The notes beneath the pieces are model-generated. The model did no database searches and was not told the origin of the DNA. It saw nothing but the letters and a program-made list of their open reading frames with translations. From Marsupella aquatica (Eukaryota; Plantae; Marchantiophyta): a stretch of DNA of 64,000 nt. The stretch's first letter is position 1; each line of letters starts with the position of its first letter. Shown in pieces: positions 671-63,123 of the stretch. Made by a program: the position numbers and the translations under genes. The DNA is taken from contig OZ316891.1 in assembly GCA_973895155.1 (NCBI GenBank), positions 17,139,651 to 17,203,650 on the forward strand, written 5' to 3'.

Positions 671-835
671 TAGTTTCTTGGACTTACATACATGTATATA
701 TATATGTCAGTTTATTTTACATGTTTACATGAGAATGATGTTGTTCAGCAGTGCATGTGTTGATGAGATTAATTAATTGATGTTGTATGATAGAATCAAT
801 ATGTAACACCTGATATTGGGGTAATATCACGAGCT

Positions 836-4034: not shown

Positions 4035-4239
4035 TATAAATTGTAGACCCCACCATCTTCATGTATATTTTTACCGGCACTATCTTTTTATCGTCATTCT
4101 ACGATTTTTCTCATTGTCCACAATTTCATGCAGTATACATATCTATTGCTTAAAGTATGCCCCATATCTGAATCCATTAATTCCATGCAACCTATACATT
4201 GTAAAACACTAAAGTCCCATACCATATCCCATTCAAATA

Positions 4240-4765: not shown

Positions 4766-4949
4766 AAGTCCCTAAAATGTACTAGTGACACGAGCCTCGT
4801 GTTGAGGGATACTGATGTGCATGTCTTATCCTGGCAAACCAGGTCAAAACCTATCGTCGTTGCTTTTTTCCTACCGGTGAATAATTCCTGTCTTGTGTCC
4901 ACACGACAGTCGTGTCAAAGTTACTGTCAACCTCAAATCGGTCTAGAAT

Positions 4950-40937: not shown

Positions 40938-40990
40938 CCATCTTTTATCATCACCCATCTTTTATCATCACCCATCTTTTATCATCACCC
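40938..40990. repeat. 3 x 17-bp tandem repeat CCATCTTTTATCATCAC
   Basis: Read directly; sits at the deletion junction of copy A. Confidence 0.9.
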
Positions 40991-41750
40991 ACTGGTCTTG
41001 TGGCATCTTGTGTGTATACCAAGAACCCTTGCGAGTCTTCTTTCAAATGGCTTCAAACTTTGCATAACTTGTAGCATCAATGAGGGGTTTGTAGTGCTCT
41101 AGGTTGCGTGATAAAAGACAAGAGATTTTGTCGGCATCAAGAATCCAAGACGGCTCGACCACAACTTGTCCCAAATTACGTCAAAATCTAAATGGAAATT
41201 AGCAGCGTCGGGCACTAGTAAAACACCAAATATAATATCACATCAAAAACCCATCTTGAACTAGTAAGTCATATTAAATGAGGTTGTCCTGAACAATGAC
41301 TTACTGGTTGACAGCGTGCATGGCAGCCTCGAGCTCCACGAGGGAACCTTTATCTCCATTGAAAACAATGCAAGTCACACGAGGGTGGTACTTAATGTTG
41401 TCCGGATGCTCTGCTGTCACAATCAACCACGAATACAAATGGTGATTTCCATCAAAGACACAAAACATCTTGTCTTTCAAAAATTTGAAATCAAGATCAG
41501 CGTCACACTCTTCCTTGAACTTGTCATTCTTGGCCACCCAAATTGGGTCCCAAGAGGCTCTAATCTCATTAGTGCAAATTTGTGGAACCCCATCCGTATT
41601 TGTTGGCTGTACGTAAAATGGCATGCCCATGCGCGAATTGTATCTAGAAATCCGGAATGACTCCTTCAATTTGTCGATGGAGGCACTTTGCTTCTACAAC
41701 ATCCGCACCACTTCCATATGAATCAATCGACATAGAGGAATTTGTGGAGG

Positions 41751-44700
41751 TGTGACGCCGCCGGTACCGTGGGTAATGAGTGATTCGGCCTAACAATGCT
41801 TAGCACGCGCGTTAGGGGTATCTTAGGCCATAATTATTAGCATAATGATAGTATTTAGGTAGCCATTATGAGTAGGAAATCATTAGTCAATAAGGGGCAT
41901 TCGTGTTCGGGCTGGCGGCGGGTTGCCATCACATGCCCGGGTTGCAAGCGTGTAATGGGCCCTCACCTTTCCCCCTTGGGTCCGTATAACAAAGGCAGAC
42001 ACTGACACGAGCTGACCCGGACCGGCAGAGTGGCCGGGACACTACAAGCGTGAAAGGCTCGGCCTATAAGCGACGAGGAGGCGTCAGGCAATCGACGAGC
42101 TCTCAGGGTATAAAAGGGGGCCAATCCTTTGCACTGCACCAGTTATTCAGTCCACGCGCCAGCTTCGACCCCAGTTCTCTCGCTTATCCTTAGTCGCCTT
42201 CTATCTCCTCTGAATGTTGCACACAATCCTTTCCAGTTTGGCCATACGATTCTGGACGCAGTTCCTGTCTATCGGAGGGCACTTGGCCGACTCATTGAAA
42301 CACGCCAACCCGCGCCAATACAAAATCGAATGCAAATATGAGAGAGCCATCCGCCTAGCAGGCCACCACCACTATCTCCTTAACTTTGATTACCCATCCT
42401 AGAGCAAGCTTTACCGACCCAAAGAGATATCAAGGTACTTCTTCAACAAAGGCAAATATATCGGCTTCTAGGAGGCACTGCTTCGGCTTCCGGACCAGGT
42501 CTTCAATATCCCGGGCACGATCGACTTACAGCGACACCACTTCAACCACATCCCCGCTCGGGTCCGGGACATCATCAACAGCGAGTCCAGCACTACCCAG
42601 TCTACAAGGGCATCTACACTTGCTTCGGAAAACCTCTACCAGCACCTGCAGAATTTCATGGCAACCGTACCATCGACTACCGGTGCCAGCCCAGTCGTGC
42701 CCATGCCCGCACCAGCACCAGCTCAGGCTCAGGCTCCGCCTCAGCCTAGCCAAACCCCACCACTAGTTGCCCCACCCATACAGGTGAGATCCGTTGTCAA
42801 CGCTGTAGATCTCAGCAATGACGAAGGGGCTACGTTACCCCTATTCAGGCGTCCCAAAGGAGCAAACACTCAGGGAGCCGGGACTACATCGCCCCCTCCC
42901 CAGGCCCGGACCCGAGTAACGGCTCCAGCGGACAACATGGTGACCGTAGCCGCTCCGGCCCCAATACTAATGGTGGTGGCACTACCTATACCCGATCGAG
43001 AAGATGGGGAGGTGTCACCCTCCCCGAGCCAGTCTCGGGGAAAGAAGAGGAAGGAACCCACAGCTATATCCGGGTTACCCATGACCACCGTAGCCGCAGC
43101 CAAGGTGACAATGCACCGCATGGGGGAGAACGTGCATAAGAACATCCTCCACCCCAAACATGCGGTGTACTTGAAGACTCAGGGGTTTGAGCACCTTGCC
43201 TCTCTCCCCTGGAACACCTGCAGGTACTACGGGGAGGACATGACATAATTCGTCAAGAATTATGACAACGTCCGTCAACATACTCGGCTGCGGGGGAGGA
43301 ATATGTCCCTCACAGAGGAGCGGCTCAGGATGATATTCGGGCTACCCAAGGGCTCCCGGGGGCAAAGGAGCCAAGTACCAATCCTCGAGTTTTCCCTCCA
43401 AGGGGTCAGTGGACAAGGGGTTCGTGATGAGGACCTGCCTCATCCCCGAGATAGCCGACCGACTGGAGTTCCAGAGGTACGCCCTCCACATGATGGAACC
43501 CCAGGGCGAGATCTCCACTGCCCAAGTTATCCAGGTTGAGAACTATCAACCTAGGAAGTGGGCGTCGTACTTCGCTAAGAAGTTCCATGAAGAGATGGAG
43601 CGGCGAAGGAAGTTGCTATACATCGGTGGGAAGGCGTATTTTGCAAGCCACATCGAGATCATTCTTGAGTGGTACACCCGGTTTGATCGACAAACCCTTC
43701 CCCGGGTCAACGTAACTAAGTTGGTCCCAGCTAGGTGGGTCTTCCCGGCCCTGGACAGACGGCCCCAACCCGAGGCCCAAAGTCTGGCGGCCACGCAGGC
43801 CTCACCCACCCCACCTCCACAAGTAGCCATAGCCATGGCCAAAGTGATACCAGACGAGGCAGTAATCGCAACCTTAAACGCGATCAACCAGGCCGGGCCG
43901 AGCGCAGAATTCAAAGCGGTAGAAAACTTGGCCGAGCCTAAGGGTCCAAAAAATCCACCAATGGCTATTCCGGAGGAAAGGATGATGATGGAGGAGGACA
44001 CTCCAGCCCCTTCCAACACTACATCCCCAGGGTTGGATGTCACTACCCCGGCCCCCGCGCGAGTTGACATCTGCCCGTGCCCAAATCCGCACGGGCATAC
44101 CTGGACCACCCGGAACTCTTCGTACCGGGTACATTTATGAACGGGCTTTTGGGAGATTTCTCCCAAAAGATTGCCCGGGATACCGGGGAGTTCATGGCCC
44201 GGAAGGTAGCCTACTTCTTTAATCAGGAGTTAGTTACCACGGTAAAAGCAGGTCGGGCCCAGTCAAAGGCCCTTTAGAGGATAGAGCGGTACCGGGTTGA
44301 GTCCGTGTTCCTAAAGGACAAAGTTGCGGCTCAAGAGGCTGAGCTTCTGCAACTATGACCCAAGGTTGCAGCCGCCAATGAGTTGTTAGCAAATGCGCAC
44401 GCCCTTACCGCCCTAGCCAAACAGGCCAAAGCTGGGAAGGAGGCCGAGATTGCACGGCTCTGGACCCAGGTTGACAGTTTGAAGAACCAAACTGTCATTT
44501 GGCAAAAAGACCCGGAGGAGGCCAAAGAGCGGGCCCAGCGTGACACTACGGAGATTGCCACCCTGCAGACCGAAGTGGCACAGCTTCAAGCCAAAGCCAA
44601 GAAACAGACCTAGGTGGTGGACAAGTTGACGAGCAACGCCCAACAACTGGAAGAGGCATGCCAGGAGGCAACTGAGGAGACGGACGTGGCAAAGCGAGAG

Positions 44701-45690
44701 AACGAATCTCTACTAGACCAAGTCCAACTCCTCAAGATGGACAACGACAGACTCTGTAGGCAGCGGGATGGCCGCTCCCACTCGGACGGCTTTGGCAAGC
44801 GCACCAGGCATTAGCGGAGGGTTAGGCTTAGAATAGAACTAGGAGTAGCTAAAACAGGCTATTAGGACAAGCGCCAGCCAGAAGATAGCGGCACTAACAC
44901 ATTAGCTAGCCTGTGTAGAATAGATTAGACTAATAGGACAAACCGTAACCAGCTTAACAAGGATATAAGTTAGCGTAGATTCGGGCACGAGGCCAGGCTG
45001 GTCCTCAGCCCTTAGTATTTAGCAGCCCCCCAGTAGAGGCAAGGGGGGATTTTAGACTCAAAAGTTGGCCATTCGCGGTATGCGTGGGGAGTCCCAAACT
45101 CGGTGAAGTACCGGAGTGCCAAGGGGAGGGTATACGACTAAGCTCGTTGGGCGAGTGCGGAGCCGGGCTCCATTGTAGTGTATACTCCTCGACCTTGGGC
45201 CCATGCGTTCACAAGGTGTCGGGTCAACCAATCGTAAGTGTATGATCATAAATGAATGAAATCCTTTCCCCTCAATTCCTTCGTGTAAATCAAGATTTAT
45301 GTTTATGTGTAAATGCATGTATGAGTCTCGTGTGCAAGTATCAATGTCGGGCCAAACACGTTATGCCAAGCATGCACGGGGTGCAGGTTACGGATATGGG
45401 GTTGCAAGCCGGGGTTGAGCACTTGTACTAATGGATCCGGATCGAAGGCGGTAACACAAAGGCTTAGAAGTCCGTAAGCCGGGGTCGACCCCGTGTCAAC
45501 TAAGGTACGTTCCGGCAGAACACAAACTATACCTAGGAGGTGTCTGTACATAACAGTAAACACACTTAGCGCTAGTTTACGTGAGTTAGGAGCATTCCGT
45601 GCGTCCCTCCTTGCCCGAACCCTCATATTTACAAAGGATGTGCCTGTCTAAGCCAAACCCCGGGTTAAGGCCTAGGCTGACGACGTGACA
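41751..45690 (+). mobile_element. 3.9-kb TG..CA element with 5-bp TSD (giant solo-LTR-like)
   Basis: Ends TGTGACGCCG / CGACGTGACA; TSD GGAGG at 41746-41750 and 45691-45695; removing it restores the copy A frame (KEPP-QIPLCRL); TATAAAA at ~42110. Confidence 0.88.
42658..44814 (+). pseudogene. Decayed gene related to 32536-35896 (PMD-like region plus coiled coil)
   Basis: GFEHLASLPW..FVKNY..LTEERLRMIFGLP..KGF, followed by coiled-coil fragments 44077-44814. Confidence 0.6.
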
Positions 45691-47021
45691 GGAGGCTCCT
45701 TCTCCAATCCTCTAAAATCTTTGCCAAAGGACAAGACATGCTTGGATATGTAATCGTCCATTGAAAGTCCAGCAACACCAAAATAAACTTGTGCAACTTC
45801 CTCAATCGTGTCCATTCTCCCCCTTCTTGATTGCGCGGTTGGAAGAGTTGAGCCAATGTCTGAATGTGAATGAGACGCAGCCGACCGAGTCACGCGATGG
45901 GTGTACACAAAACCTAAAAAAGAGGATTGTGAGGACTCGAAATGACCGACATGACTATCTCCCATCCTTGTATTACCCCATTGAGAGATATGGCGATTGC
46001 GTTGAACAAAACGTCAAACAGTATCGTACAACTCTCCTAGAGCCCCTGAGCCAATACGGAGTAACAGACTTAGGTACAAAATGTCACGTTCGAACAGGCT
46101 GCTCCTAGAGAATTACGTATCTCCCATGAGCGCCAAGTCCCCATAGAGGGTTAAGAGATGGAGTCTCTAGCACATTAGAATGTTGCTCAATAGTAACACC
46201 AACAGAGCCGAACACTTGGAAGATTACCATTGGACCAACAATGGTCTTATACTTTGGCAGTGTGATCAGCAATCTTCAATGTTACCGTTAAAATATGACC
46301 GTTGATTGATTTAGCCTTATTGATAGCGCCAAGCGCTAGCAAAAACAACTCTATATTACCCAATTTAAACTACTAATTTCAATAGCGCCGAGCGCCAACA
46401 AATCGACCACATATGTGTTTTTACACAATTCAAATGGATTTCCAGCCTTGAGGGACCAAATGGATGTTATTTAGAACATTTTATCCTTAAAAGTTTATTA
46501 GCGCTCGGCGCTATCATAAATGATATCCAATTCAAAGCTAATCATCACGCAAACATAATACAAACTCATCCATATCCAAAAATATTTTCAGAATTCCACT
46601 GGTACCAGAAGGATAATTTTGAGCATTCCAATGATAGCGCCAAGCGCTAATATGGAATGTGTCACGGGTAAGATCCCTCCATCGAAAACTACATGCATTT
46701 TCAAGACTTCCAAATGACATTTGGTACAAAGATTGACTCATTCCCATAAGATAGAACATCAAAAAACACGAACTGACTCATGCAAACTTCGGCAAGGGGA
46801 TGTCTAAGAGTTTGGAACTCCATTTACGGTCATTGGATTTACTTCACCAAGTCTAGAAACATCAAGTGTACACTTCAAGATTTTTTAAAAACTGGGGAGT
46901 AACCTCCCACTAGATTCCGAGACTACCATGTAGGCAAAAGATTGACTACCATTACTACCATTACTGCAACAACTGGTCGTGGCTGTCAACATCGGACTCC
47001 ACCAAATAGAGTGGGCCCGAC

Positions 47022-47290
47022 CTCCGTGACAAGAAACAGGAAACAGTGATGATCATAACAGGAAAAATAGTTGAACAAAACAGGAGAATTTGTACTATCA
47101 TTGACAAAAAACGGCTTAATTTTGACCCAAACCAAAGAGGTCAAATTCAACATCAACTCAAAAAGATGGGGAAAACGACAATTATCGGAAGATGCCTTTA
47201 CTAGCGCTTAGTCCTAACCAAGCGTTCGATACCGTTACAAAATATCATTAACAAAATACCCGCTCAACATCTACCGGAATGATCAAAGGA
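47022..47290 (+). repeat. Left TIR (~270 bp) of the MULE
   Basis: Inverted homology to 62855-63123; its inner part is duplicated again at ~47555-47635. Confidence 0.72.
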
Positions 47291-50261
47291 TAACGGTTTC
47301 TAAGGCAAGAAAAGGTCATCCTCGAGAATGCATGTGAAAGAAATCCACACGTTCAGACTTGGAAACTACAAACTGAAACCAAGTAAGGAAATGAAGTCTA
47401 GCGCCGGGCGCTAACAAAACTGAAGTCCAAGTGACAAAACTGAAGTCCAAGTGACCCGTACAATGAAATTTACACATCCGTAAAATTGTAAAAACAAATT
47501 TAGTTTTTTGTGCAACCCACAAAACATTGAGCCGTGTTGAAAAGAAACCAAATGTTGTTTACTAGCGCCAGGCGCTAACCAAAACAAGGTTACCGTTACG
47601 AAATGACAAGTCCAACATACCCGTTGAACGTAAACAAGAATACTAAGCCTTCCTATAAACCATCAGCATTATGCCTCGCTAGAATATAACGCAGTTCCGC
47701 AATGGTAAGAATCGGTTGGCTTGGGAGGATATTGTCCACAGGATCAAGCTTGCAGATAACTTTGTAAACCCAGTACAAGTGTTTACATGGCATGAAAGGT
47801 TTCCCTCGAGAATGTCAACGAAAGAAATCTTCACAAGAGCAACAAGGGAAAATGCAAATCTGCACCCAGTAAGTATTTGCAGTTCGTAAATGTGCATGTG
47901 TGCGTATCTGGAATTGTTTTCCGTATGAATTTCCCGATGAAACTTCCATAGTTTTGATCAAAGTCATTGTTTCTTTCGTTGCTGATTCAATCCTTTTATG
48001 ATATTCCTGAGTGAGATTTGATCTGGAGATCATCGCACGCCCGTTTCTTGTTTGAAAATGGATGTTGACTTGTGCAAGATCGATCTTTTCAGGGAAAATG
48101 TCAATGTTGATTCTCAGTTCAAATGGAGAAGGACAACGTGAAATAGCACCTCCTCTCGAGACTTCAATGCCCTGCTCGTGAAGGAAATTCAACTCCAGAC
48201 TTGAAAGATGAGTGCCTTTCTGTACTGGCAAAAAGTCTGGGCAAGTAGGGAGGTTCACAATACCTCGACGAGGGCGGCTCTTCCAGCAATCACGAGTGGG
48301 GCAGAACCAGATAAGCTCTGGATGGTGTTCACCTCTGAATAAGCGGTAACCTTTGATGACTATTCCGACAACCCCTGCATTTGAAGGATATCCGACCTTC
48401 TTAATTCGATTACGACACTCATCTCGATCACAACTTCCAGACAACGTCCCATTACACTGAGGTCCAGCACCGTGTCTGGAAACTCTCCGCAAATGCCACA
48501 ACCTGGGTACAACATCCACTTCAAAAAGCGAAGTGTCTACAAGAATGAATGGAGTGGTGTTCGGAACACTTTCTGGAACTTTGGAAGATTGAGTGACATG
48601 ATGGGAAACTGGAGAGCCACTTTCAGACAAATCGATAACTGGATTCGAAGGAGGAGTTCTAAGTATCGGAATGTGCTCAAACTCGACTGAGGTCAAATTT
48701 CTCCTCTTGCAACCTCGGGTGTTTGGCGTAGTTATGAGAACCGTGTCATGTCAATGGGAGTCTTGTGGAGAGACATTCTCGGTCGCCGGACCTTTTCTTT
48801 TCATAGACTTCGTCACAAAATCCCCATTCAACGGAGAATCCCTCTCCAAATCAAATTCTGCTGCATTTGCGAGTAACATATTAGAGGCTTCTTTGAAGAG
48901 TTTTGGGGACCCTGCTTGGTCAGCTGAACGAAAAGCCAATTCAAACACTGTTGGACCGGTACCCCGATGGAGCCCTTCACGATATGCTATATAGGCTGCT
49001 ATTTGTGAGATTGCTCTGTTGTGATCGGTCTTACATCCTTCGAACAAACCAACTGTTTTCTTTCCCTGCCATGCTTTCATGATTCCGTGAACAGCTTCAG
49101 AACCAGTGCAATTGGGAATCATCCCCCCTTCAAGTGCACTTTTGCTCTGAAAAAGAGTTTTGTCAAATTCAGTACAATATAGCGAATAAAAATAAAGTGG
49201 AACTTCAAAATGGGCGGACGAAAGGTATGAATGTTTTCATGATTATTGTGAAGATTGAAGAAGCTATCAAGCTATTCGTACGTTAGCGCCCGGCGCTGGC
49301 AAAAACATCAATAAATATCACAAGTAGAAAAGGGATATTAATACTAGCTGTAGTTTGCTATGAAGAACCAAAAACACACTTAAAGGTCTTCAAACTCGGT
49401 ATTCGTTCCCATAAAGAACAAGATGGGGTTGGTTTGATAGATTTAATCAATAATAAAGAACTAAAAATGTTTTCCACACATAGTAATCAAGTTTGATTAC
49501 TTTAATAAGGTACTTTGAAGATCGCTCCACAGCGGTGAGTGGTTTTCAATGACAACTCAGCATCATGTAACCATAAATTAATGAAAAGGGAATGATTAAC
49601 AAAATACAAGGAAAATAATCTCAAAGTATGCTAAGGGAGTCTGGAATTGACCAAGGTTGCTCCTTAGACATAAGTCAAAATGAAAAGACTTAAGGATTCA
49701 AATCCACGTTTGCTTTTCAGATCTAAAATGCTTACTAGAGTACCTTTTAAAATGCCGTAAACATGTCTTATCCTTTCTTTCTAAGTGGTACTCAGATTAA
49801 ATCTAAAAGGTAGCTACTTCAACATTTAGATGGTACTAAGCAACATGAAAGAAAATCCATCAATTCCAATAAGACTTAAACTCAATGAGTTAACTTTAAG
49901 AACTCAGGAGATTGCAATGAATCACCAAAAAGGAATCTATCATCACAAGATCCAAAGATTTCTTACAAATGGATTTTACTTCTTGTGTTTATAATCAGAG
50001 GTAAAAACACAAGAAGGAGGTAAGTCTCTCCAAATGTTAAACCTAATCTCGAACTCATAGATTCATGATCAATGGGTTTAACACAAGGTAGAGGCAAAAA
50101 TGCAAAACTTAACCATACTTCTACACTAGTGGTGGAGGGGTCTTATAGTAAAAACCTACAGGGTAAGAGGTCATAGGGTCGAAGAGACATGCCTCTTCAT
50201 ACTCCTCAAAAAGTCAAAACAGCGATTCAGTAAGTGAAAAGCCGGAAAATGGCTAAGTAAG

Positions 50262-50325
50262 AACCCGTAAAAGCGTAAAAGCGTAAAGACGTAATCGCGT
50301 AAAAGCGTAAAAACATAAAGGCATA
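50262..50325. repeat. CGTAA-core minisatellite (7-8-bp period)
   Basis: ccgtaaaagcgtaaaagcgtaaagacgtaatcgcgtaaaagcgtaaaa. Confidence 0.85.
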
Positions 50326-50554
50326 ATCTGGTGAATGCGGTAGACTTAAAGACTTACCGAATTCAACTATTTTTAACTTTCTACTCCTGGCTCGGAAAAT
50401 TCTGAAAATTTTCCAGTGAGTTTCTCTATGTATAGACTACATACTAAAGAAGTTTCATAGCTTTTAAAGCTCTATAACACATTTTAAAAAATAGGGAAAG
50501 ATGCACTACTCTTAAAACTAACTAAAACACTTGGTTTCTTCCTTAAGCTTGTTG

Positions 50555-52972
50555 TCAGATGTCGTCTGGTTCGAGTAGCTCCACGAGGGTAACAGTCCAA
50601 GCTTGAGTAACTTCCATCAGCTCACCCTGGCGTGGGGATCCTCGAGAGTAGGGTAGGCATCTCAATTGCCTTTCAGGATACATCAGGGGCATTCTTCTCC
50701 TTAGATAACATATGTCTATTCGAAGAGCTTCTCTATATATCCCAATCACGTCATAATTATTGCAAGTAGCAGCATATACTTGGGGATAATGGTATAGAAA
50801 TTCATCAGAGTTCAGCATCCTGGAATAGAAAGGGTGAAGCCTCCATTTGACATCTCTGAAATACCGGTTGAAGTTGGCTAGAGTTTGAGAGGTGACATTG
50901 TTCCAGATTCTCTGTTTCTCAGCTAATGAACTGGTTGAAACAAGGGTAACCTTGGGCTCTCGAGGAAGGTAAGCGTTCTGGGGAGAAGTAGATTTCTTAC
51001 TCTGCATGAGAAAAGAAACCACAAAATCTAGGGCATAAGCTGCCAAATTTCCAAAATATGCCAGAACTAAATCTGGATCCTCCACCTCTACATCACCCTG
51101 AAGTAGCATCACAGCAAGAATGGGCCGGAAATAGAGAGAGTCAGTCCAGAACTCATCAAATTGTGTCATCTCCAGTCTGGAAGTTCCAAAACACCTGAGG
51201 TCGAAGATATAACTGGCCTCTGTCTTCTTGAGATAGTAGTATTTCCAAAATTCTCCAACCAGTGGTCTGTTGGCCTGCATAATCTTACAGGTCTCCACAT
51301 ACCTGTGCACTTGGGACTCTGGATGTCTCGGGTATCTACTCTCGATGGTGGCATTCCGAGGTGTTTGAGTAGATGAGGTGACAACTGCTACTAAGTTTGG
51401 ATTGGATCTTAAGGCAGTATCAACATCTTCAAATCCCTGCCTTGGGGATAACTCAAGAGAATTATCATAAGATCTATAAGTTTCACCATCTGAGGGTGGA
51501 TCAGAGTCTTCAGGTATATCCTCTCTGACGTAAGGGTGTTCATATTGTGACCGATTGTAGGTGGGTCTTTTTGTGGGTTCGTAGTAAAAATCAGGGCTGT
51601 AAGGTTGCGAACCTGGGCTAGGAGTGGGACTAGTAGTTGGACATTGTTGGATCAAGTTGCTGACCACAGATGCTATCTGTCGAGGTTCACACTGTAGTAT
51701 TTCTAACAAGTCATCCACAATGGCCACACAGCTGATACTATCTGTTACTGGAATAGGCTCACTTGTTTCTAGGGGAGGGGGCTGTACAGTGACAGGAGTA
51801 CAGATCACAAACTCCATTGGTGCTAGTTCTCTTGGGGAAGAGGTCATTCTGACAGGACTTAGCTGATCATGAAATGGTGATCTCAAACTAACAGCCTCCA
51901 TTCTCAAATTATTAACAGCGTCATATAGTCCATCATTACTGCAACTGAGGAGAGATGTCAACTTATCAATAAGCTGCTAATTTGACTCTGCCTTCGAAGG
52001 AGTGGACCTAGTGGTCTCATGAGGAGTAGCATCAGTTGGTGTAGCAACATCGTCTTGTTGATGAATGCTCCTTACTTCTTCAGCTTCTAGTGGATCTGCA
52101 TCCATAGTCCGGCTAGGGAAATTCTCATTACTTATTGATTGGCAAACAACTTCCCTGCTATGCATAGGAGAATGTGTAGGGATTTCTAATGAAGTATCCT
52201 CCATAGGAACATCAGTATTCTCCTCAACGTTCTGATCATTCGAATTCAATGGGGTGACATGTACAATGTCCTCCATAGGAATTTCTTCTTCAATACCCAA
52301 GTCAATCAGGAGTAACCCCCTCTCTGTCTCTTCCTCCAGATATAAACAGTCATGAGTATAATAGAGCTGAGAGAGATAATTTTGTAAACAAGTGGTCCTC
52401 CCTGCTTCCAAGCTCCTTACTTGATCCTTCATTACATTAAACAGAAGTAGGGCCCAATTTACTTTTATAGCTCCACTGTGAGCAGCTACAATGGTGTTAG
52501 CCAAGGCCATAGGACAGAGAGTTGGCTTTTTCGGATGAAGAATGGGTACCAGAAATTCCATGAGCACTCTCAATTTAGGATAAGTACACTGGGACAAGTT
52601 CCAACCATTCTTGGCATTTCGAGTTCCTGAGAAGTATGGAGCAGATAAGTCCTGCTTCTTGGAATATAACGCCTCTCCTTCTAACGGGCATCCAAAGGCG
52701 TAAGCAATTTGCTCAACAGTCCACAGGCTGGGGTGAGCTCGAATCGTTTGCCTGAATTCAATCGGGATGATAGTCCCCTTCACAAAATCCTGCAAGTAGG
52801 AGTCGAGCTCGACATTCCAGGAGATCCTGAGCAAGCGCTCCAATCCTAAGTGTTGTAAAGAGTCTTGTAAATTAGAAAGACTATCAGGCGCTCGTGGTAT
52901 ACGAGCTGCCACTACTTTTGAGACTGCTAGAGCTTCAATTTGATACTATTCCTCAACACCCAGGTTCGCCAT
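50555..52972 (-). pseudogene. ~800-codon gene with two in-frame TAG stops; N-terminal domain related to the genes in 31558-36273 and 41751-45690
   Basis: ORFs 52946-52972, 51977-52912 and 50555-51961 are in one frame; LGLERLLRISW..LQDFV..WTVEQIAYAFGCP..KNGW..LMEFL. Confidence 0.7.
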
Positions 52973-53139
52973 AGCTGCAATGGTGATTTGCGTGCTGCGA
53001 AGGTTGCTTTCGAAGAGAAAGAGCAAGTGAATAGGGGTGGTGAAAATACAGGAGTGAGCGCCTGAACTCTGTGCTTGATTCCTATCAAGGTATGAAGTCC
53101 CCAATTTGTTTCTAAGTCCCGTTGCAAAGTTAGTCGTAG

Positions 53140-53265
53140 CGCCGTAACGTGAACTTTCCTTAAACGCGTAAGGCGTAAGCCGTAATCCCGTATTGGCGTA
53201 AACTCGTAACAGCGTAAACCCGTAAACCCGTAATGCTCTTATGCGTAAATGCGTAATCCCGTTAT
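53140..53265. repeat. CGTAA-core minisatellite (7-8-bp period)
   Basis: gcgtaaggcgtaagccgtaatcccgtattggcgtaaactcgtaacagcgtaaacccgtaaacccgtaa... Confidence 0.85.
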
Positions 53266-56200
53266 AAAGTATATCCATAGTTTACACTTGGCATTTTAAC
53301 AGCAACAGCAGGCTTAAATACTGTAAAAAGTTTAAATTTTTCAGTAATTTCAGGTTTTTGATATTACCCAATACTCACACTAGCGCCAGGCGCTAGTATA
53401 CATTGACTCACCAAAGTATGAAATTTCCCCACTGATGCCACCTCACAACCCACCAAGCGATCCATCTTTGCAACATTCTAAGTTTCCCAGGAATACAATT
53501 TCCAGATCTCCACGATGAATCAATCTCTCGTGATACCCTGTAGGCTTCCACAAATGAAGCGGCATTCCGCAACTTGTCCCAAAGGATTCGATGTTCAACA
53601 CGTTTTTCGTCAAGTACTCCTTCGATAGAGTGCCGATGCAAAGACTGATAAAAGTGGAATGCATCCGATCGCTCTCTCTCCTGGTTTGGATGGCAGTCAA
53701 AGAAGACATTCCTAACCGCTATCCATCCCGCCTGAGCGTTATCCGCCATGAAACCATGGATTTCCACACCGTTTAAACCGTTCTCCAAAGCGACTTTGAT
53801 CATCAACCTCCAAGCTTTCTCAAGCGATGCAGTGTCCTCTGCTTTGAGTTCACAAGTAAATATTGTGCACAAAGCTCGATAGTTATGGTCATACACATGT
53901 GCACTAAAAGTACTCCATTCTTTTGACATCCTTTTCATCACGTCAAAGCTCACCCATGCTCCTTCTAGAGGCCCCCCTTTCTTCATCTGACGCAGTAAAT
54001 CTACTCCCGATCCATGACCTTTGATAGTCATTTTGAAAATATGCGCTCTATCACCTTTACAACCCTGCCCAGGAAGAAGATATCTTTGGAGAAAAGGAAA
54101 CGTAACATTCTTCTGCATGCGAACCAGATATTCCAAATCACCTCGACCAACCTGATCTTTGCGAACGCTCTTAAATAACGCAAAAACTTCTGAGGCGTTG
54201 AAACGAGCATAAGTGATTTCCAGATTTCTGATTCTTCTAGCTTTGAAATGTCATCCACAGACTCACCTACGGCATCCATTAAAGATCCAGTGATCTCATT
54301 TTTCAAAACGCACGGTGTAGAAGAAGGAGACTTCTCATGTTGTCTCCGTATTTCTTCTATTGCTATTTTCTCAGCACTTCTAGACCAGACCTTCCGACAT
54401 GGATGGTTGTGCACTCCCATATGGATTGCAAGTCATGACATGTGTTTTGCAGTGTCATTTTTGATCAAAACTTGCGGGTACATATAAAACATTTTTGCTG
54501 GACAAGACTCAACACAAAATGGAACTTGAAGGCAATAGCAACAAACAATTCCTCCAGCATCGATAAACCTCCCAGGACAATGCTGACCAGAGAGCTTGGG
54601 GGTCCCATCCCATCCATTACAGTTTCTAACTTGAGTCCTGGTGTAAAACTCACATGCTCTATTTTGGCATTCGAGAGAACCACTACAGCTTACTTTCCCA
54701 AACTCCCACATCTTCTTCGGAACGACATTAGCAGAAGTAGGAAGGATTCTAGTCCAGAGGTAGCAGTCCTTGCATCGATCCATGTTTCGCAGACGATCCC
54801 CTTTCGAGCCAACACCTTCAACAGGTGGAAGCTCAAATATGGTATTCCCATTGTACTCTATAGGTAAGCATTCAACCTGTTTGTGAATGAATGCCTTGGA
54901 CCTAACAAAGCGCAATAACTCACTTTGTCCAGTTGACTTCAACAAGGCATCAAGTGCGCTTCTTCTCTACACAACCAGAACAGGACGAGTTAGAGTGTCT
55001 CCATCATCAGACTTCTCCGACGCAATCAATACGGGGAGTACCTGGGGCGTCAACAAATTGGTACTTCCGCCCTCCTTATTGACCTCACCGCCCTTTGAGA
55101 TTGGTGGAGAACCCTCAGAGCATTCAGCGTCGGACGTAAGGTCAATGACATCGTGAGCGACCTGATGCGTCTCCACCTTGACATGAACGATGTCCCTTAG
55201 TTGAATGAAAATCAAGTACTCCACGCCATATTCGAGATTCCAAACAACGTCCTCCGCTTCAGTATCAAAATGAGCGGGCCCATCGTTCAAAGTTCTGATA
55301 CTCAAAATATGTTTTCTCGTCACCCCAAATCTTCCACACAGGTAATTATCACTAACACGTTTCTTGGTTTTGAAAATCGACACAGGGATCGTCACAACGT
55401 CACCTGTATTCGGACACGTTATTCCAATAATGCGAGACATTCTAACTCCCCAAAGATAACCGACTACATAAAATAATGATACATTGTAAAATGAAACTAG
55501 TTTGGATGGTTGAGGGTTTCTTCTAAATCCAAGTCTCAAACGGAAAGAGCCGTCGAGCGGTTATAGGATCCGTTGGGTACGGATTTTCTTACCATTCAAG
55601 AAACGACAAAACCATAAATTCGGCGGATAGTTACTGTTGAATTAATGGTTTTGACATTGTAACCAAAGGGGTAATATAGTAGCGCCAGGCGCTAGCATTT
55701 TCCACATCTGAAAGAGCCCAAAAAATGAACAACAAAAGCAAAGATCATCGGCCATTTTGGTTACTGACACAGGTTAACATTCTACGATAGGTTTCGGGTT
55801 TCCTTGGAAATATATCGGGTTTCCATGGAAATAGCCCCTTATTTATGTCAGACGACAATATTACCCTCTGCTTATATTAAAATCGATCCATTTGAGATCG
55901 AGTAGAAGCTATCACAATAATAGCGCCAGGCGCTATCATAAAATTTCTTTAAAATGTCAAGATGTACTCGTACATTATTTATAGAAACTTACACATTTCG
56001 TGTCCAAACATCTACCATTTTGAGGTGTCTCGTTACTAGCGCCGAGCGCTATTATTGAAATCTACACATTTGTTCCCTATTTGAGACTAAAAGAAAAATA
56101 GCGCCTGGCACTTTCATATACTTTATAGAAATAGAAGCCGTTTATTACAAAATCTTTCTCGCTTTAGTCCAATCATTCGCATGATTTTTTAGTACAATGT

Positions 56201-56673
56201 TACTAGCGCCAGGCGCTATTATTAAAATCCTTCATTTTAAGATATATTTTAGTCTAGCATAATAATAGCGCCAGGCGCTAATATTAGATCGAAGTAGAAT
56301 AATGACATAAACGGTCTTTTTAAATGGTAACTTTGACCATTTATCGTTACAATTTATAACGAATTCCTGGATAAATATATTCACGAGTACCTATAAACTA
56401 GTTAAAATGTGACAAGTGTCAACCTTTAGTAGGTCTGCTTTTGGATGCTCATGCTTTTCGATGTGTACTTGTGATACATGTCGGTCTGCCACAGGGTATA
56501 TCAGATAAGATCTTTTCGCGATAGTATCTTTCTTGATCGTTAGAACGACCTTTGCGCACGTTTAGGATCGTTGTCAATCATTTGTCCATATCGGTATAGC
56601 ACCACAAGAAACGTTGCATCACGCAAGAAGCACGTTGAGGTGCGGGTTCCCCGTGTGTGCATCTTAAACAGAC

Positions 56674-59600
56674 ATGGAAAATCATTCTCCTGGCCATTCT
56701 GAAACATCCGAGTCCTCATTCTCCGGATCAATTTATACTCGGAGAGTCACTCGTTCGTCTGCATCGAACTCTTTGCGAAACATTAGTCAGTCGATTCCAA
56801 AGCCAAAATGAGGCATCATGGAGTCATACGGAGATTTTGCGATGGAGGACGGTGGCGAGGGAGTCCTGTCCATGGATGCTGTGATCAAGAAATATGCAAT
56901 GTCATTTGGAGTCGATTTCAGAGGGGAGAAGAAAGAGCCGCCGCGTATCCCTCTTTGTCGGCTTATTCACATGGAAATCGTTTGGACTTTATAGAAAAAT
57001 AGTGCATCTATCGATAAGCTCAAGGATTTGTTTTGGAGCTCTGGGTACAACTCTTCAATTGGGATGCGGTTTAACGTCCAGCCCACGGATTCAGAAGGAG
57101 TCGTTCAATTCTGCACGCCTGAAATTTGGGAGACATGGGATGCTGTTTCGGTTGCCCAGAATGACTTGTTTGAAGCAGAATGTGCTACTGATCCAGATTT
57201 CCACATTGTGAAGGATAAGATGTTCTGTGTTTTTGACGGGAATCATCGACTCTACTCGTGGACCCAAGTAACAAATGAGAATCCAGACAATATCAAGTAC
57301 CATTCGCGTGTTCAATGCACTGTTTTTAAGGGAGATCGGGGTTCTCTAGTTGAGCTTGAAGCGGCTATGCACACGGTGAACCAGTAAGTATTCCTCAAGT
57401 TGCATAAACGCTATTGAGTTTGGTCAATTGCGCTTGATTTTTGCAAAGTTAGTTACGGCCAGGCGCTAATATTTGCCATTATACCTTACAGGTTAGGGCA
57501 AGCTGTGGTGGAACCATCGTGGATTCTCGATGCCGATAGAATCAATCGGATTTTAACTCATGACTTGGAGGCCTACAAGCCGATCATCGACCCCGGAAGC
57601 TTCAAGTGATTTCAAACTGTTCATGCCAAAACAAGAAAGGGGTCTTGGTATACCAAGCAGATGCCATTGGAAGCATTGGTTTACATCTTGTGTGAAAACA
57701 AGATTAAGTCGTATTCACTTCAATTTAAGCTTGACTTGGCTGCTGCAAAAAATCAAGGTCGTCCGTGGTCATCTGAAGAGACTGGTAAGCGGTATGCTGC
57801 CATGATGAAGGAGGCAACGAAGGAGTGGAGCATAAAGACATCCAAGATTACCCCCTGATAAGCCCAGAGTTTGGTGATTTTTTGTCAACTTGTGCAAAAA
57901 TGTACATTCTTACGGAGAGGAACAAACGAGAAAAGAAGCCGGACTCTGTAGTATGTACAATAGACTGCGCGCGTCTATTCACTACTGTCTCCTACTTGGA
58001 TCCACAATTGCACTGTACTCTTCTTGTTGCTCACTGTACACCCGAGCTCAGAAAACAATTTTACCATCCCCCGAGTGTGAATGATGACCCTGTTAAACAG
58101 TGGTGTCATACATGGCACATGTGGAGTTTGGTGGAAGGAATTGCAATTGCAATGTTACAGACATCTCTTTCGCAAGTCCAGTCGATCCTACCTGCTGATC
58201 GTCTGACACTAGGAGGAGTGGAGACGTTTGAAGCTTTGGTCTTGAACATCACCAATGATTTCAAGACATACGGTGAAACAGTGAAGGCAAAGTTTTTTAG
58301 CACAATTTGGCAGTCCAAGTACGGAGACAAGGAAGACTATACCATTCGCAACCAGAAGCGAGCCAAGAGATATCTGTATCGCTTCTACATGGCGATGGAG
58401 ACCAGTTCTCCAAAGTATTTTTGGGCTTACCCTCTTGCATTCCAAAAATGGTCCGTTCTAGAGGGGGATGCTTTTAGCAAAGTTTACTCAATGTACCCTG
58501 CCGAAGGGGACGTTCCACCATGTGACATTTCATTGTGGGAGATAACCCACTGTCCATGGTATCTTGACACAGATAAGTGGGACACCCTTTCAATGAAGCT
58601 GAAAAGGATGCATTTCTGAAATTATCAAAGTCTTTAGTCCCTCGGAAAGTTCTGTCTGAAATGAAACAAGGTTTATCGGAAGATGTAGATGCCTCGGCGA
58701 GCGAGCTGCAGAAACATTGCGAAACAGAAGTTTTGCATGTAGACAGGAGTCGAAAACCCCGGGCAAAAGCAAAACTAGACACTGGAGTAACCAGCCCATC
58801 AACGAGATCCAGGAAGAAACGTGAGATTCTTCTATTTTTCATCGGCATTCCGTATTTCCCTTCACTAGTTTGGATATTTAGGTGTCTTTTTGTTTAGCGC
58901 CACAGATGTTGGTGTCCATTTATTTCTTGATTTTTGTGCAGTTTGGTTAGCGCCCGGCGTTGGTGTTATTTTCCATTGGCATTCTGTATTTTCTCTCCAC
59001 CAACTTGATTATGCCAGTGACTTTTGAGGAGCGCTGCAGATCAAGTTGTCTATTTATCGGTTGATTTTTTGGGCAGTTTGGTTAGCGCCCGGCGCTGGTG
59101 TTATGTGGACCGTAATCTTGGAAACTTTTGTTTCTTTTTCTAGGTGGACGGAAATCGGATGGAGAAGAAACACAAGATGCAAAGACGAAAATCACTCCTG
59201 GAGTCTCTAAAGCTGATACGGAGGAACAAGATGTCCCTGATGAACAGACTCCTCCCAACACGGAGAAGATGGTGCGACCTGCAGATGCCACCAACACGAA
59301 GAAAAAGAAAAAGAAATCTTTGGATCATGGATTTTCCTCTCGGGATTCAGTCGCTTCTACTGGTGTTCAACGAGATGTTGGACAGTTCAAGTCTAAGACT
59401 TCTAGGCATGTTTTTGTTGAGTCCAGCGTAATGGACTTCTTTGAGAGTGTGTTCACGAAAGAGCAGAAACCGGCTTGGGTGTCAAATGTGGAGAAGTGGG
59501 TGAAAGACCTAGTCTTGCTTGGTCTAAGGGAGAAAGGAGTCATAAGAGGAGGGAAGATAAGATCATTTGGAGTTGATGTTGGATTCGTTTACCTCCCAAC

Positions 59601-61023
59601 TGGACTGCGCCCATCCCTTTTAGAGAAGAAGTCTCCAAAATGGAATTCCCCAGATCACAGAATTGTTGGTTCATTCTTTCGCGCAATGGACCCCTTTCTA
59701 GCAGATGATGGTATATTGGCCATTTTGCATACCGGCGAGTATGATCAGATCTCGCAGGTCATCGCCGCGAGCCAGGAGTCTCAAAAGTTTCAGTGTGTGA
59801 AAACCCTGAACGTGGTTATGGGAGTTCCAATGTACATGGCCCGAAGTGATTGCTAGGTAAATTCTCTCACTCTTCGTGCTGTCCTTTGTTAGCGCCGAGC
59901 GCTAGCTAAAAATGTTTTCATATACCTTTCGGTTAAGGGGATATTCTTTGTTAGCGCCTGGCGCTATCCAAAATTCATTGTTATGCCGTGATTTAAATGA
60001 TTTTCTGGTTGGATCGTCGACATCTTAACAATGGACTTTGTTGGGATTTCACAGGTTTTCACATTGAGATTGGATCTGTTCAGTCGTGTTTCGTCAAAGG
60101 TTAAAGTTCCAAAGGACCCCAAGTTTCGACCCCTCTTTGCAACTGAAGATCCTTCTATGACTAACCTTATTGGTCTCCCAAGTGTGAGGAAGGATCCAAC
60201 TCCTTCAGCAGCGTTTGCTGGCAATGGACGCTTGTCCGTTGGGTTCATGCAATCTGTGTTAGAGTTAATCACTCGGCCGGGTGACATTGTCATGGACTGG
60301 ACTGTGGGTTCAAGAAGTACATTTGTTGCTGGTGACTATTGTGGTCATTTTATTCTTGGTATAGAAAACCGAAAAGAGTTTGTTGAGATTGCGGAAAAGA
60401 CATGGATGGATTTATTGATTCCAAAGGATGTCAGTTCCTCATCTCCCGCTAAAGATGTGGGAAGAAAACAAAAAGATAAAGTTCGCTCTGTCTTAAATTT
60501 TGACTCTGAAGATGAAGAGGATGGAGATGCTGTTGGAGATGATGCTTCAGGAGGACAAGGAGAGGAAAATGAAGGAGACGAGAAGGAGAGGCATACGATG
60601 AAAGAAACAAAAGATTTGGATTCTTCTGAGTAATGCCCGTAAGCTACTTCACTTTACATTATCGATTCTGTTACTGTCCCATTTTCATTTTCAACTCTAA
60701 TATGGTTCCGTTCCTCTTCCAGATCGGAGTGGAATCTTCAAGAACGTTTTAATCTTAGGAGGAAATACTCGAGAAAAGTTCTCGTTTCTCCTCAGAAGCC
60801 TTTTGTGTTGCCCTCGTATGCAGAATATGCTGCACGCAAAGAAGAATAGAGGAGAACACTTACTTGGGAGAGTAAGGGCTTAAGGTTAAGAAGAGGTTCA
60901 GATAGGAAATTCATCCACCAGCCTTTACTCAACGATGGACCTAGAAGCAAATTTATAGATGATGAAGCTGAGTCTACAGATAGGTCTGGCAGTAGCGAGT
61001 CCGAGTCTTCTGACTTGGAATAG
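56674..61023 (+). pseudogene. ParB/Sulfiredoxin-like plus N6/N4 DNA-methyltransferase-like fusion gene, copy B (5 predicted exons, several nonsense changes)
   Basis: ParB-like: IPLCRL..IDKLKDLF..GY..MFCVFDGNHRLYSW. MTase-like: VDVGFVYLPTG, FFRAMDPFLADDGILAI, LITRPGDIVMDWTVGSRSTFVAGDYCGHFILGIENRKEFVEIAEK. GT-AG introns at about 57384-57491, 58821-59143, 59857-60054 and 60630-60722. Confidence 0.78.
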
Positions 61024-61320
61024 GTTGAGTGGGAATTTCTAAGGTTTTCTTTAGAACCTTGTACTAGCGCCCGACGCTATTAAACAGGGTGTTCGGATCT
61101 GAGACTTTAAAGGAGATAGACGCACCAGGAGTCTCTTTCCTGAGTGCATATTTGTGTAGATATCAGAAATGCATGTACTCGTATAGTTGTACGGTGAATA
61201 ATTATACCTTCAGTCTGTACGTATTTTTGTTTGTGGTTGATATGATCGTTTGGACTCTCTCAAAGTGTAGTGCGTGTTTGTTCAACTTCATGATTGTTCA
61301 ACCCTAAACTCATTTCTCCC

Positions 61321-61436
61321 TTTCATTTCTGTTAGGCGCTGACTCTCCTCTTCCTTTTGTTTCATTTTTGCACTGCCCAGACTCACCTCTTCCCTTCGTT
61401 TCATTTCTGGTCTGCCCGGACTCACCTCTTCTCTTC
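61321..61436. repeat. ~39-bp tandem repeat, about 3 copies, pyrimidine-rich
   Basis: tttcattt...gactc(t/a)cctcttc repeated. Confidence 0.75.
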
Positions 61437-61472
61437 TCCCTGAGTTTTGCATCCGTTGTTTCCATCGACTCA

Positions 61473-62072
61473 ATGGATAAGGGAAAGCAAATAGCGAAAT
61501 CGAAGAGCTGCAATCCGCCAAAGGTGATGGTTTGGAGGTCAATTAGAGATCCAGGTTTAGATTTGACTCCATCTTTTACGCAGTGCCCAGAGACGTCGAC
61601 CGAGAGGAACAAGTTGTGGCTGGCCCCGGATGAGGGTATTAGCCACAAAATTGGACACCTTCCATCGCGTGATCCTTCGCCTCCACTTCCTTTCCGAGAG
61701 AGGTTCTCTGTTCACGACCCGGATCCTTCCAATGTGTATCGGGTGGAAAGGACAGCTTTTTTCAGAGACATCCAAGCAGACACCGGACGTGTGAACTTTT
61801 CAGATTCGAACATCCCGAACGACCGGAGTCGGAGTCGCTATCCCGGACCTCGTTTTTTTCTGGATCGAGAGGATGGGTTTCGACAGGATGAGGATAGGTT
61901 CAAAGCTGGATTGGACGACGACTGCATGTGGGCATCACCACCGAGACAGGAAACAGGAAAACAGGATTACTGGTACCAGCAAAAGGTTTCCTGTTACCAG
62001 GAAAATTTTACTATTACCAGTAAAAAACACGATCTAAAAATGTACCATTTAAAGTCTTATTTTTCAGAATAA
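61473..62072 (+). CDS. Hypothetical ~200-aa ORF inside the MULE (MDKGKQIAKS...)
   Basis: Uninterrupted ORF with an ATG after a pyrimidine-rich leader; no family recognised. Confidence 0.35.
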   Translation: MDKGKQIAKSKSCNPPKVMVWRSIRDPGLDLTPSFTQCPETSTERNKLWLAPDEGISHKIGHLPSRDPSPPLPFRERFSVHDPDPSNVYRVERTAFFRDIQADTGRVNFSDSNIPNDRSRSRYPGPRFFLDREDGFRQDEDRFKAGLDDDCMWASPPRQETGKQDYWYQQKVSCYQENFTITSKKHDLKMYHLKSYFSE

Positions 62073-62854
62073 TTAAAATCATGGGTTTTTTTTGCGAGCG
62101 CCAAGCGCTGCTATTGTTAGCTCCGGGCGCTAGCAATATGATGATGACAAACCAAAACCAAAAAAACTTTTTTTCCCCAAAAAAACATTTTCCAAAAAAA
62201 ATCCAAAAAAAAAATCCAAAAAAATTACCACTCACTTTCCTGTTACTGTTTCCTGTCGTTTGTAAATACCCCACTGCATGTCTTCTACTTCCTAGAGAGT
62301 GTGGATTTCTTCTTCGACACTAGCGCCGGGCGCTAGCTTTCATCTCATCTTTGGAGTCGTTCATGAGTTTGATTCATGTCATCTTTTTGAATGGGGGCTC
62401 CGGTTCGTCCGAGTTAGCTTTATTCCTTCCATTTTATTATCACATTAGGTTTTTTGAGTATGTTATTAGGGTTATTTCTTTTTCTCGAAGGTTATGGACT
62501 TTTATTACCTTCTGGATATCAATGTAATTTCTTTTTCAAGTAGCGCCTGTTGCTAGCGCTTGGCGCTACTATTATATGTTCCATTCTCCTCCACAATTAT
62601 GTAAACCCGCCTCTATAAAATTGTGTCTTTCATCTCTCTTTTTTCTAGTGTCCTCCAAATATGTTGCGAATACTATTAGTGGCTCTTTTATTGTTGAAAT
62701 TGGTTGTTTCCTGTTACTGGAATTGGGTTCCTGTCAAATGGAAAGCCCTCTGACAAAACGATCTTTAAGCTTCATCCGATGTATTCGGTCTTACCGAGCC
62801 AGCCAGTTTTGAATGTCGGAGAACTCTAGTTCATCGTAGGAAGGGAGAATCTGC

Positions 62855-63123
62855 ATGGTTCATTCGACGATACGTTGAACGGACATTTTGTTAATGTTGT
62901 TTTGAACGGCAACAAACTCTTGGTTAGCGCTCGGCGCTAGTAAAACTTGTCTTTCCATAATTACTGTAGAGAACGCTAAACATATTGGAGTTCCTATTGA
63001 AATTGGCCTCCTTGTTTGTCCAAAATTATGTCATCTTTTGTGTATGCTAGTACCAAATCTCCTGTTTTGTTCCTCTCTTTTTCCTGTTATGATTGTTATT
63101 GTTTTTTGTTTCCTGTCACGGGG
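62855..63123 (-). repeat. Right TIR (~270 bp) of the MULE
   Basis: Inverted homology to 47022-47290; contains a palindrome copy at 62925. Confidence 0.72.

Follow-up and report, generated by a model that had tools for sequence, protein, structure and literature searches.

What does a gene that joins a ParB-like domain to a DNA methyltransferase (MTase)-like domain do in a liverwort, and what carries it? Such a gene lies on the plus strand at 56674-61023 of a 64,000-nucleotide stretch of Marsupella aquatica DNA (assembly GCA_973895155.1, contig OZ316891.1, positions 17,139,651 to 17,203,650), called here the window, in whose numbering all positions are given. The fusion is real and, like the family to which it belongs, well supported; the gene is likely borne by a transposon, and its function we infer. 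The family is undescribed, old, present in several lineages and invisible to Pfam. A preliminary description of this DNA had proposed a spliced gene and quoted a set of motifs. This gene model held: five exons, about 1209 codons in sum, are separated by four GT-AG introns of compatible phases (Table 1), and all the quoted motifs are present in the three-frame translation, among them DGNHR in exon 1, VDVGFVYLPTG in exon 3 (YLPT at 59590-59601), PFLADDGILAI, and PGDIVMDWTVGSRST..GHFILGIE, which starts at 60277 in exon 4. A donor of intron 4 at 60639 was rejected, as it would bring in an in-frame stop, and the donor at 60630 is common to a second copy of the gene in the window (copy 2, the gene itself being copy 1). 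Four in-frame stops lie inside exons (56809 and 56992 in exon 1, 57607 in exon 2, 60847 in exon 5), a fifth stands at the junction that ends exon 3 (59854), and exon 2 contains two frame changes, near 57857 and 58600; the gene is now a pseudogene. A lysine run in the exon 3 linker is a possible nuclear localisation signal.

The ParB assignment of the N-terminal half rests on structure prediction, because exon 1 lacks a ParB sequence match: exon 1 and its relatives gave no match in Pfam (ParB_N, PF02195, included) or PHROGs, and exon 1 and its profile returned noise from the PDB. An AlphaFold model of the relative P0028, which reaches residue 576, had a predicted local distance difference test score (pLDDT) mostly above 90 over residues 160-550. 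Foldseek ranked ParB and Noc chains first with this model, but at E values of at least 0.19. Against 48,161 chains the top seven were KorB, PadC, pNOB8 ParB, sulfiredoxin (Srx), SerK, a ParB DNA-binding domain and Spo0J (Z 8.0-5.4). When 504 Foldseek chains were re-aligned, the top 13 were of ParB, KorB, Noc and PadC types (Z 9.3-6.9), Srx and SerK reached at most Z 5.9, and unrelated chains, the Srx/SerK/SbnI group aside, at most 4.5. The best was Caulobacter ParB (7bm8; Z 9.3, 99 residues, 2.4 Å). The alignments with ParB-type chains spanned the nucleotide-binding and DNA-binding domains: KorB aligned over 206 of its 209 residues with model residues 172-547 (6.1 Å), and ParB-parS (190/190) and Noc (210/221) over about 155-547 at 6-7 Å. 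The N-terminal domain of the family is thus predicted to be a ParB-type nucleotide-binding fold, and the resemblance of the helical domain of exon 2 to a ParB DNA-binding domain is suggestive. In an alignment of 51 rows, chosen by similarity to exon 1, an arginine (39/42), the residues G (48/51), N (50/51), H (49/51) and R (44/50), and a further N (48/48) were conserved. We take the first R and the last N to be equivalent to those of ParB boxes I and III from the pattern of residues rather than from a residue-level superposition. In this order R, GNHR and N follow boxes I to III as defined in PMC12704722.

The C-terminal half is closer to known sequences. Exon 4 matched Pfam N6_N4_Mtase with an E value of 8.8e-6, just short of the curated cut-off, and DpnA in the PDB (E 0.0016; 7.7e-7 with the family profile). 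A model of the relative P0003 (pLDDT 85) matched CcrM (E 6e-12, Z 18.7, 213 residues), followed by M.BceJIV (Z 18.0), MboIIA (17.2) and N4CMT (16.9). The domain is predicted to be the permuted Rossmann fold of beta-class amino-methyltransferases, with motif IV ahead of motif I. The searches with models of relatives thus agree with the preliminary assignment of a ParB/Srx-like and an N6/N4 MTase fold, matching ParB, KorB and Noc on one side and CcrM on the other. The motifs for binding S-adenosylmethionine (SAM) are kept in the family (motif I, D in 43/50, G in 40/48 and G in 37/48; motif II, E in 36/42); copy 1 has R in place of the last G of the SAM-binding motif, and copy 2 keeps GAG. The catalytic motif IV, (D/N/S)PP(Y/F/W), was canonical in none of the 38 rows with letters there (73 rows aligned), which include near-identical Riccia paralogues. 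Position 4 was never aromatic in these rows, and position 1 was D or S in nine and lacked D, N or S in 29. Motif IV reads DLPF in the fern (outside the 38), DLPT, DMPS or DPPT in Riccia, and YLPT, ALPT or FLPN in the clade of the window, so that the catalytic motif appears lost by degrees across the family (DLPF, DLPT, YLPT). The best phage matches, which were weak (E 0.002-0.007), have DLPF, DLPY, DIPY and DPPY; none of the plant rows contains the HPTQKP motif. From these residues, the MTase domain is likely non-catalytic.

The divergence of the two copies indicates that this altered domain was nevertheless maintained. Copy 2 is 66-72% identical to copy 1 in DNA and 46-68% in protein over the better-matching pieces, and both carry YLPT. 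Between them, pN (non-synonymous differences per site) was 0.19-0.25 and pS (synonymous) 0.76-0.89 in all six exon pieces, with 0.21 and 0.81 in the MTase domain and 0.195 and 0.76 in exon 5. All six pieces have been under purifying selection, the altered MTase domain included; as pN is far below pS throughout, this domain was therefore selected to stay. YLPT at motif IV, which had been suspected to be a conserved trait rather than random decay, is accordingly a property of the family. Exon 5 gave no significant BLAST match to P0161 (E 0.15). Near the C-terminus an acidic motif of the type F-[IV]-D-D-E-A is found in the window (60946-60970) and in the Riccia models P0051, P0161 and P0039, not significant by BLAST, and may be a short binding motif.

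The family extends beyond Marsupella. A phmmer search of 1.84 billion representatives gave 210 relatives at E≤0.001; the 30 representatives looked up included ten from Riccia sorocarpa, three from Calypogeia fissa and one from the fern Adiantum capillus-veneris. With the full-length Riccia model P0153 as query, all 24 matches were from R. sorocarpa, where the members are spread over eight different contigs and many copies are broken. Nine R. sorocarpa gene models matched both the N-terminal and the MTase parts, and the Adiantum model P0197 carries motifs of both domains. Exons 1, 2 and 4 of the window are collinear on P0153, exon 3 having no direct match there; exons 3 and 4 are joined in Calypogeia models, and exon 3 gave no match in a word search of longer proteins. 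Two further proteins, P0087 (exon-2-like) and P0063 (exon-3-like), are both placed on ENA contigs of 7196 bases; they probably belong to a further copy of the gene on one contig. Of the 51 alignment rows, 39 showed the terminal motif, and in 33 of these 39 the frame ends no more than one residue from it. Four metagenome loci (L001-L004; 31-47% identity) all have GTAAGT at the position of the same phase-2 intron 1. From these relatives alone, the host would be taken for a liverwort or some other early-diverging land plant. A midpoint-rooted tree of 50 rows for the N-terminal domain, built without an outgroup, contained several deep Riccia lineages; donor and direction are not given by it. Literature searches, in which subscription journals were mostly outside coverage, found no published description of a ParB-MTase transposon family.

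Searches for the N-terminal domain elsewhere gave little. Scans with one pattern each retrieved none of 30 candidate stretches in viral contigs and none of 24 in GTDB genomes, both weak negatives; a metagenome pattern scan retrieved four of 42 stretches, every contig being below 2 kb and hence of insufficient length to show linkage; the fern protein had no match among plasmids. The idea of a phage-derived ParB-MTase module was upheld as to the two folds, which come in the same order as in phage fusions, and not as to origin, as these searches turned up no relative of the N-terminal domain among prokaryotes or viruses. Among Atlas features, a cluster with 11% PF02195 scored 0.93, which is a lead only, and the segment 56995-57384 came close (0.94) to a cluster of fungal proteins, 31% of which have DUF3723. 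DUF3723 is an accessory gene of Starship elements. No paper with both DUF3723 and ParB was found; ParB-like proteins may recur in eukaryotic transposons.

The non-coding DNA around both copies carries a palindrome with the consensus TAGCGCCNGGCGCTA. At one mismatch or less it occurs 24 times, all within 39,646-62,925, and never in 30 order-2 Markov simulations; at up to two mismatches there are 31 in the window, 30 of them within 38.6-63.2 kb. The first 38 kb holds one two-mismatch match only, and both nested insertions (Table 1) hold none. All 30 palindromes of this region are non-coding, non-coding DNA making up 35% of the element's own sequence; the probability computed for this exclusion from exons is an overstatement, since the sites depend on one another and the motif itself contains a stop codon in one frame of each strand. 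In both copies they are densest in the ParB-MTase gene's introns and upstream of the gene, and in introns 1-3 of both they were kept though synonymous sites are saturated; others lie in the intron and at the 3' end of a neighbouring transposase gene and in both candidate terminal repeats. A CCNGG core is present in 18 of the 30. In the distant subfamily represented by L002, intron 1 contains two copies of another palindrome with 8-bp arms and a 7-bp spacer, a perfect one arising in 1 of 300 simulations, and intron 1 of L003 holds a degenerate copy of the same type (13 of 1000 shuffles). The intron of L001 is cut off. The ends of the window palindrome, TTAGCG...GCTAA, resemble the KorB operator TTTAGCGGCTAAA (PMC11790492); this may be coincidence and was not used as evidence.

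The transposase gene lies head-to-head with the ParB-MTase gene. We take it from its motifs to be Mutator-like, which Pfam and the PDB do not confirm. Fourteen relatives were matched, including intact single-frame proteins, in which an N-terminus rich in Cys and His precedes two D residues, CxxH, E and a finger of SWIM-like type; exon 2 aligned with one of these, P0183, an intact single open reading frame, at 24% identity over 487 columns (E 3e-28). The conserved motifs are FD, AD.A, C.FH (DAFH in the window), SE and the SWIM-like Cys/His residues. By these motifs the family may be an unclassified Mutator-like lineage; its members (P0177-P0190, P0200-P0203) are widespread in assemblies and invisible to the Pfam models of Mutator-like elements (MULE). 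Both genes are enclosed by candidate arms of about 260 bp that are 73% identical. In reads of 4/4 runs, all 30 bins of the region were covered by many variant contigs, as for a multi-copy sequence. In run X3 the depth, which is not copy number, was 251-396 over the transposase exon and 251-511 over the ParB-MTase gene, and several-fold higher over 49.2-51.7 kb. Some copies elsewhere may be less damaged, as is hinted by insertions of a single base in sister contigs near 54181 and near 58584, in the neighbourhood of two frameshifts. The preliminary description had linked the gene to a transposon, but noted neither the ParB-like region for DNA binding nor the Mutator-like transposase or the palindromes; this window and the dispersal in Riccia support the link, which may hold for intact relatives too.

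Table 1. Positions of the features of the Marsupella aquatica window, in window coordinates.
Feature	Positions	Strand	Remarks
Exon 1	56674..57383	+	Low-complexity N-terminus, then predicted ParB-type nucleotide-binding domain, about 56938-57383 (assigned via relatives)
DGNHR motif	57235..57249	+	ParB box II (GxxR) motif, in exon 1
Intron 1	57384..57491	+	Phase 2; degenerate palindrome at 57454
Exon 2	57492..58820	+	Helical domain aligning with ParB/KorB/Noc DNA-binding domains (model of a relative), then further helical region
Intron 2	58821..59143	+	Palindromes at 58948, 59083
Exon 3	59144..59856	+	Charged linker, then predicted N-terminal half of beta-class MTase fold
Intron 3	59857..60054	+	Palindromes at 59890, 59952
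Exon 4	60055..60629	+	Predicted SAM-binding half of MTase fold: DWTVGSRST 60295-60321, GIENR; acidic tail
Intron 4	60630..60722	+	GT-AG
Exon 5	60723..61023	+	Supported by copy 2 alone: 68% identity over 62 amino acids
Copy 2 of the gene	38689..45960	-	More decayed; exon 2 mostly deleted; breaks off within exon 5
TG...CA insertion in copy 2	41751..45690		About 3.9 kb, 5-bp duplication, inside exon 1 of copy 2
Putative Mutator-like transposase, exon 1	53408..55440	-	Cys/His-rich N-terminal domain, first two catalytic aspartates; broken
Putative Mutator-like transposase, exon 2	47653..49150	-	Catalytic glutamate region, SWIM-like finger; broken
Nested insertion in transposase intron	49343..53378		Palindrome-free
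Divergent intergenic region	55560..56673		Six palindromes: 55680, 55921, 56037, 56099, 56204, 56266
Candidate left terminal inverted repeat	47024..47282	+	Begins CCGTGACA
Candidate right terminal inverted repeat	62860..63121	+	Ends TGTCACGG
30 palindromes TAGCGC-N3-GCGCTA	39646..62939		At most two mismatches to the consensus; all outside modelled exons
Open frame, 199 codons	61473..62072	+	Inside candidate element; no family match

On this basis we propose, tentatively and at a little under an even chance, that the locus is a decayed accessory gene of a Mutator-like transposon, the intact product of which, a ParB-type clamp with an MTase-like domain, would load on the element's own palindromes and counter silencing. 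As a dimer it would read the two half-sites of TAGCGCC-N-GGCGCTA; a nucleoside triphosphate (NTP), by analogy cytidine triphosphate (CTP), would close the clamp, which would then slide along the element, starting from some one or two sites in each intron and from several at the promoters and ends. Its MTase-like domain would keep the SAM pocket and might act as a reader of DNA or methylated bases, as a shield or as a dimerisation module. Cognate copies would in this manner be shielded sequence-specifically from host methylation or repression, and the transposase would be expressed. The steps have separate precedents: VirB loads at virS, slides and counters silencing by H-NS (PMC10770331), KorB loads and slides to repress as a long-range silencer (PMC11790492), and VANC binds short, family-specific motifs located in the introns of VANDAL elements and in their intergenic and terminal parts (PMC5735166). 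Whether this is, in a stronger version, the first eukaryotic ParB-type nucleotide-gated sliding clamp, with subfamily-specific parS-like palindromes in introns, spreading a pseudo-MTase as an anti-silencer and thus a counterpart of VirB, we consider possible and rather doubtful.

Several results weigh against the anti-silencing clamp. Both folds were modelled on relatives (P0028 for the N-terminal half, P0003 for the MTase) and not on the window protein; the two-domain alignments have root-mean-square deviations of 6-15 Å, isolated ParB-type DNA-binding domains score Z 4.3-5.5 against P0028, which is the noise level of helical bundles, and no helix-turn-helix was identified at residue level in that model. 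Among 28 purified ParB-fold proteins, 11 bound any NTP, and not all bind CTP or clamp DNA; NTP specificity of these folds is not predictable from sequence (PMC12704722). The transposase family gave no Pfam MULE match, a SWIM match in one of 16 members at E 0.17, and no PDB match, and no divergent transposase accompanies copy 2. No target-site duplication of 8-11 bp was found around 47024 and 63121 at up to two mismatches, where the ends may be wrong or eroded. No contig among the pieces listed spans both genes, and the sole Riccia transposase relative found is 25 locus tags from a family member and thus not adjacent to it. L004 has no such palindrome in its two short introns.

The palindromes could instead be binding sites of the transposase, through its Cys/His-rich N-terminal domain, with the ParB-MTase protein serving as a helper of transposition or as a chromatin factor, without reading them. 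The transposase gene is flanked by palindromes, both candidate terminal repeats contain them, and the AtMu1 transposase activates cognate copies sequence-specifically (10.64898/2026.08.24.746577), which also counts against our proposal. However, the palindromes crowd most in the introns of the ParB-MTase gene and upstream of it, in both copies, another subfamily has a different palindrome in intron 1 of the same gene, and perfect dyads suit a ParB-type dimer (PMC12704722), so that we regard this explanation as unlikely, if worth keeping in sight. It is less plausible again that the clamp sits on the palindromes to repress, limiting itself in the manner of KorB by regulating the divergent promoter of the transposase: among structural matches KorB ranks first or shares first place, and it is a long-range silencer (PMC11790492), and the divergent promoter region holds six palindromes, but the sites are also spread over introns and ends in the way of VANC sites (PMC5735166), and a second gene under strong selection in many lineages would better fit an aid to transposition.

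Another possibility concerns the MTase domain, which could be an active non-canonical enzyme (making N4-methylcytosine, 4mC, or N6-methyladenine, or using another substrate) delivered by the ParB half to mark the CCNGG/GCGC core as self. The conserved SAM-binding motifs, the DLPF of the fern, as in phage enzymes, and the frequency of the CCNGG core among the palindromes agree with this, and active 4mC enzymes of bacterial origin are known in Marchantia and rotifers (10.1101/2021.02.12.428880, PMC8885841). The state of motif IV, in which the aromatic residue is missing from all rows and D, N or S at position 1 from most (29/38), speaks against activity, as does the loss of N4CMT activity when S and Y of SPPY are replaced to give APPA (PMC8885841); we judge an active enzyme improbable. 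Finally, the gene might be a host gene or passive cargo that came to lie beside a transposase by chance, the palindromes being an unrelated small repeat. The window is a dense transposon nest and the ends of the element lack a target-site duplication to fix them, yet the many broken and dispersed Riccia copies, the multi-copy state in all four runs with depths in the same range as the transposase, and the near absence of palindromes from the first 38 kb and from the nested insertions make such a coincidence very improbable.

The proposed clamp can be set beside known systems. Like KorB (RK2), VirB (Shigella plasmid), BisD (ICEclc) and ParB/Noc, the family has a predicted nucleotide-binding fold followed by a helical domain, and repeated palindromic sites on a mobile element; as for those regulators, no linked parA was seen (no ParA-family Pfam match among the 84 window frames scanned). 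Unlike them it is eukaryotic and spliced, has large insertions, shares about 10-14% identity and ends in an MTase-like domain, and its clamp activity is a prediction. Fusions of ParB with N6_N4_Mtase are common in phages (PMC12704722), and ParB-Tls loci are described in PMC4738411; phage and prophage fusions share the two folds in the same order, whereas the protein here is about 1200 amino acids long, its two parts are set apart by a sizeable helical domain and a long linker, and its catalytic motif is altered. The words plant, Marchantia and transpos- are absent from the main text of PMC12704722. VANDAL elements with VANC (Arabidopsis; PMC5735166) are similar in the proposed working mode, not in membership: an accessory gene of a Mutator-like element, here a likely one, goes with short motifs, apparently subfamily-specific, in introns, intergenic and terminal non-coding DNA. 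The proteins are unrelated, and the dispersed palindromes differ from the tandem non-palindromic repeats of VANC; the VANC domains DUF1985 and DUF287 gave no Pfam match in the window or its relatives.

Eukaryotic MTases offer further comparisons. MpDN4MT1 of Marchantia and N4CMT of bdelloid rotifers likewise have a prokaryotic-type beta-class amino-MTase fold, but they are active host enzymes that keep (T)SPPY, TSPPY in the case of MpDN4MT1 (10.1101/2021.02.12.428880), whereas SPPY never occurs in the ParB-MTase family, which is multi-copy and in which the domain is joined to ParB; the preliminary comparison with enzymes of this type was therefore not sustained. Chlorophytes and chytrids have fusions of ParB helix-turn-helix with Dam, and DIRS1 elements carry inactive MTases (PMC4738411, which may list further eukaryotic clades). 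The eukaryotic MTases described there, including chlorophyte-type Dam with a helix-turn-helix of ParB type, the Emiliania clade 6 and DIRS1, are thus similarly derived from ParB loci or borne by transposons and sometimes inactive, and differ in MTase group or architecture, and in host; the accessible text describes no ParB nucleotide-binding domain in a land-plant DNA transposon, and that of the MULE survey PMC6446971 does not mention methyltransferases. CTP clamps of the ParB type are known in bacteria and archaea and on the mobile elements of both. For eukaryotes, the example that a 2025 survey names is sulfiredoxin (PMC12704722). If our proposal is true, clamp-type ParB proteins under selection in liverwort and fern transposons would extend the CTP switch to chromatin, loading and sliding would explain how an anti-silencer that binds short motifs acts on an element of many kilobases, and subfamily-specific pairs of protein and motif could become programmable spreading tools for epigenome editing.

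Some further features of the region were recorded. The 8-bp end of the element has a third copy at 46660, so that the ends are ambiguous; the 372-bp stretch 46660-47031, between TGTCACGG and CCGTGACA, either separates the ends of two elements or is itself a small insertion. Contigs of three of the four runs jump from 49342 to 53379, across the nested insertion of the transposase intron, which contains frames of 473 and 322 codons unmatched in Pfam, as well as tandem repeats with an 8-bp unit (50258-50337 and 53181-53244). The insertion at 41751-45690 appears from its ends to be LTR (long terminal repeat)-retrotransposon-like. In the divergent spacer (55560-56674) the observed/expected ratio of CpG dinucleotides was 1.28, compared to 0.46-0.79 in the other segments measured; this comes partly from the palindromes and is possibly a sign of long-term low methylation. 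A broken CACTA-type element (Transposase_21, DUF4218, DUF4216) occupies 77-7154, with a SET-domain frame before it (E 3e-6) and a DUF7869 frame after it, the SET domain being another chromatin-enzyme domain adjoining a DNA transposase. Decayed copies of long interspersed nuclear elements lie at 10.3-15.4 kb, 19.9-20.6 kb and 28.8-38.3 kb, a copia-type retrotransposon at 21.1-25.6 kb, and just past the right arm an NIF (FCP1-like) phosphatase domain at 63127-63627 (E 6e-9).

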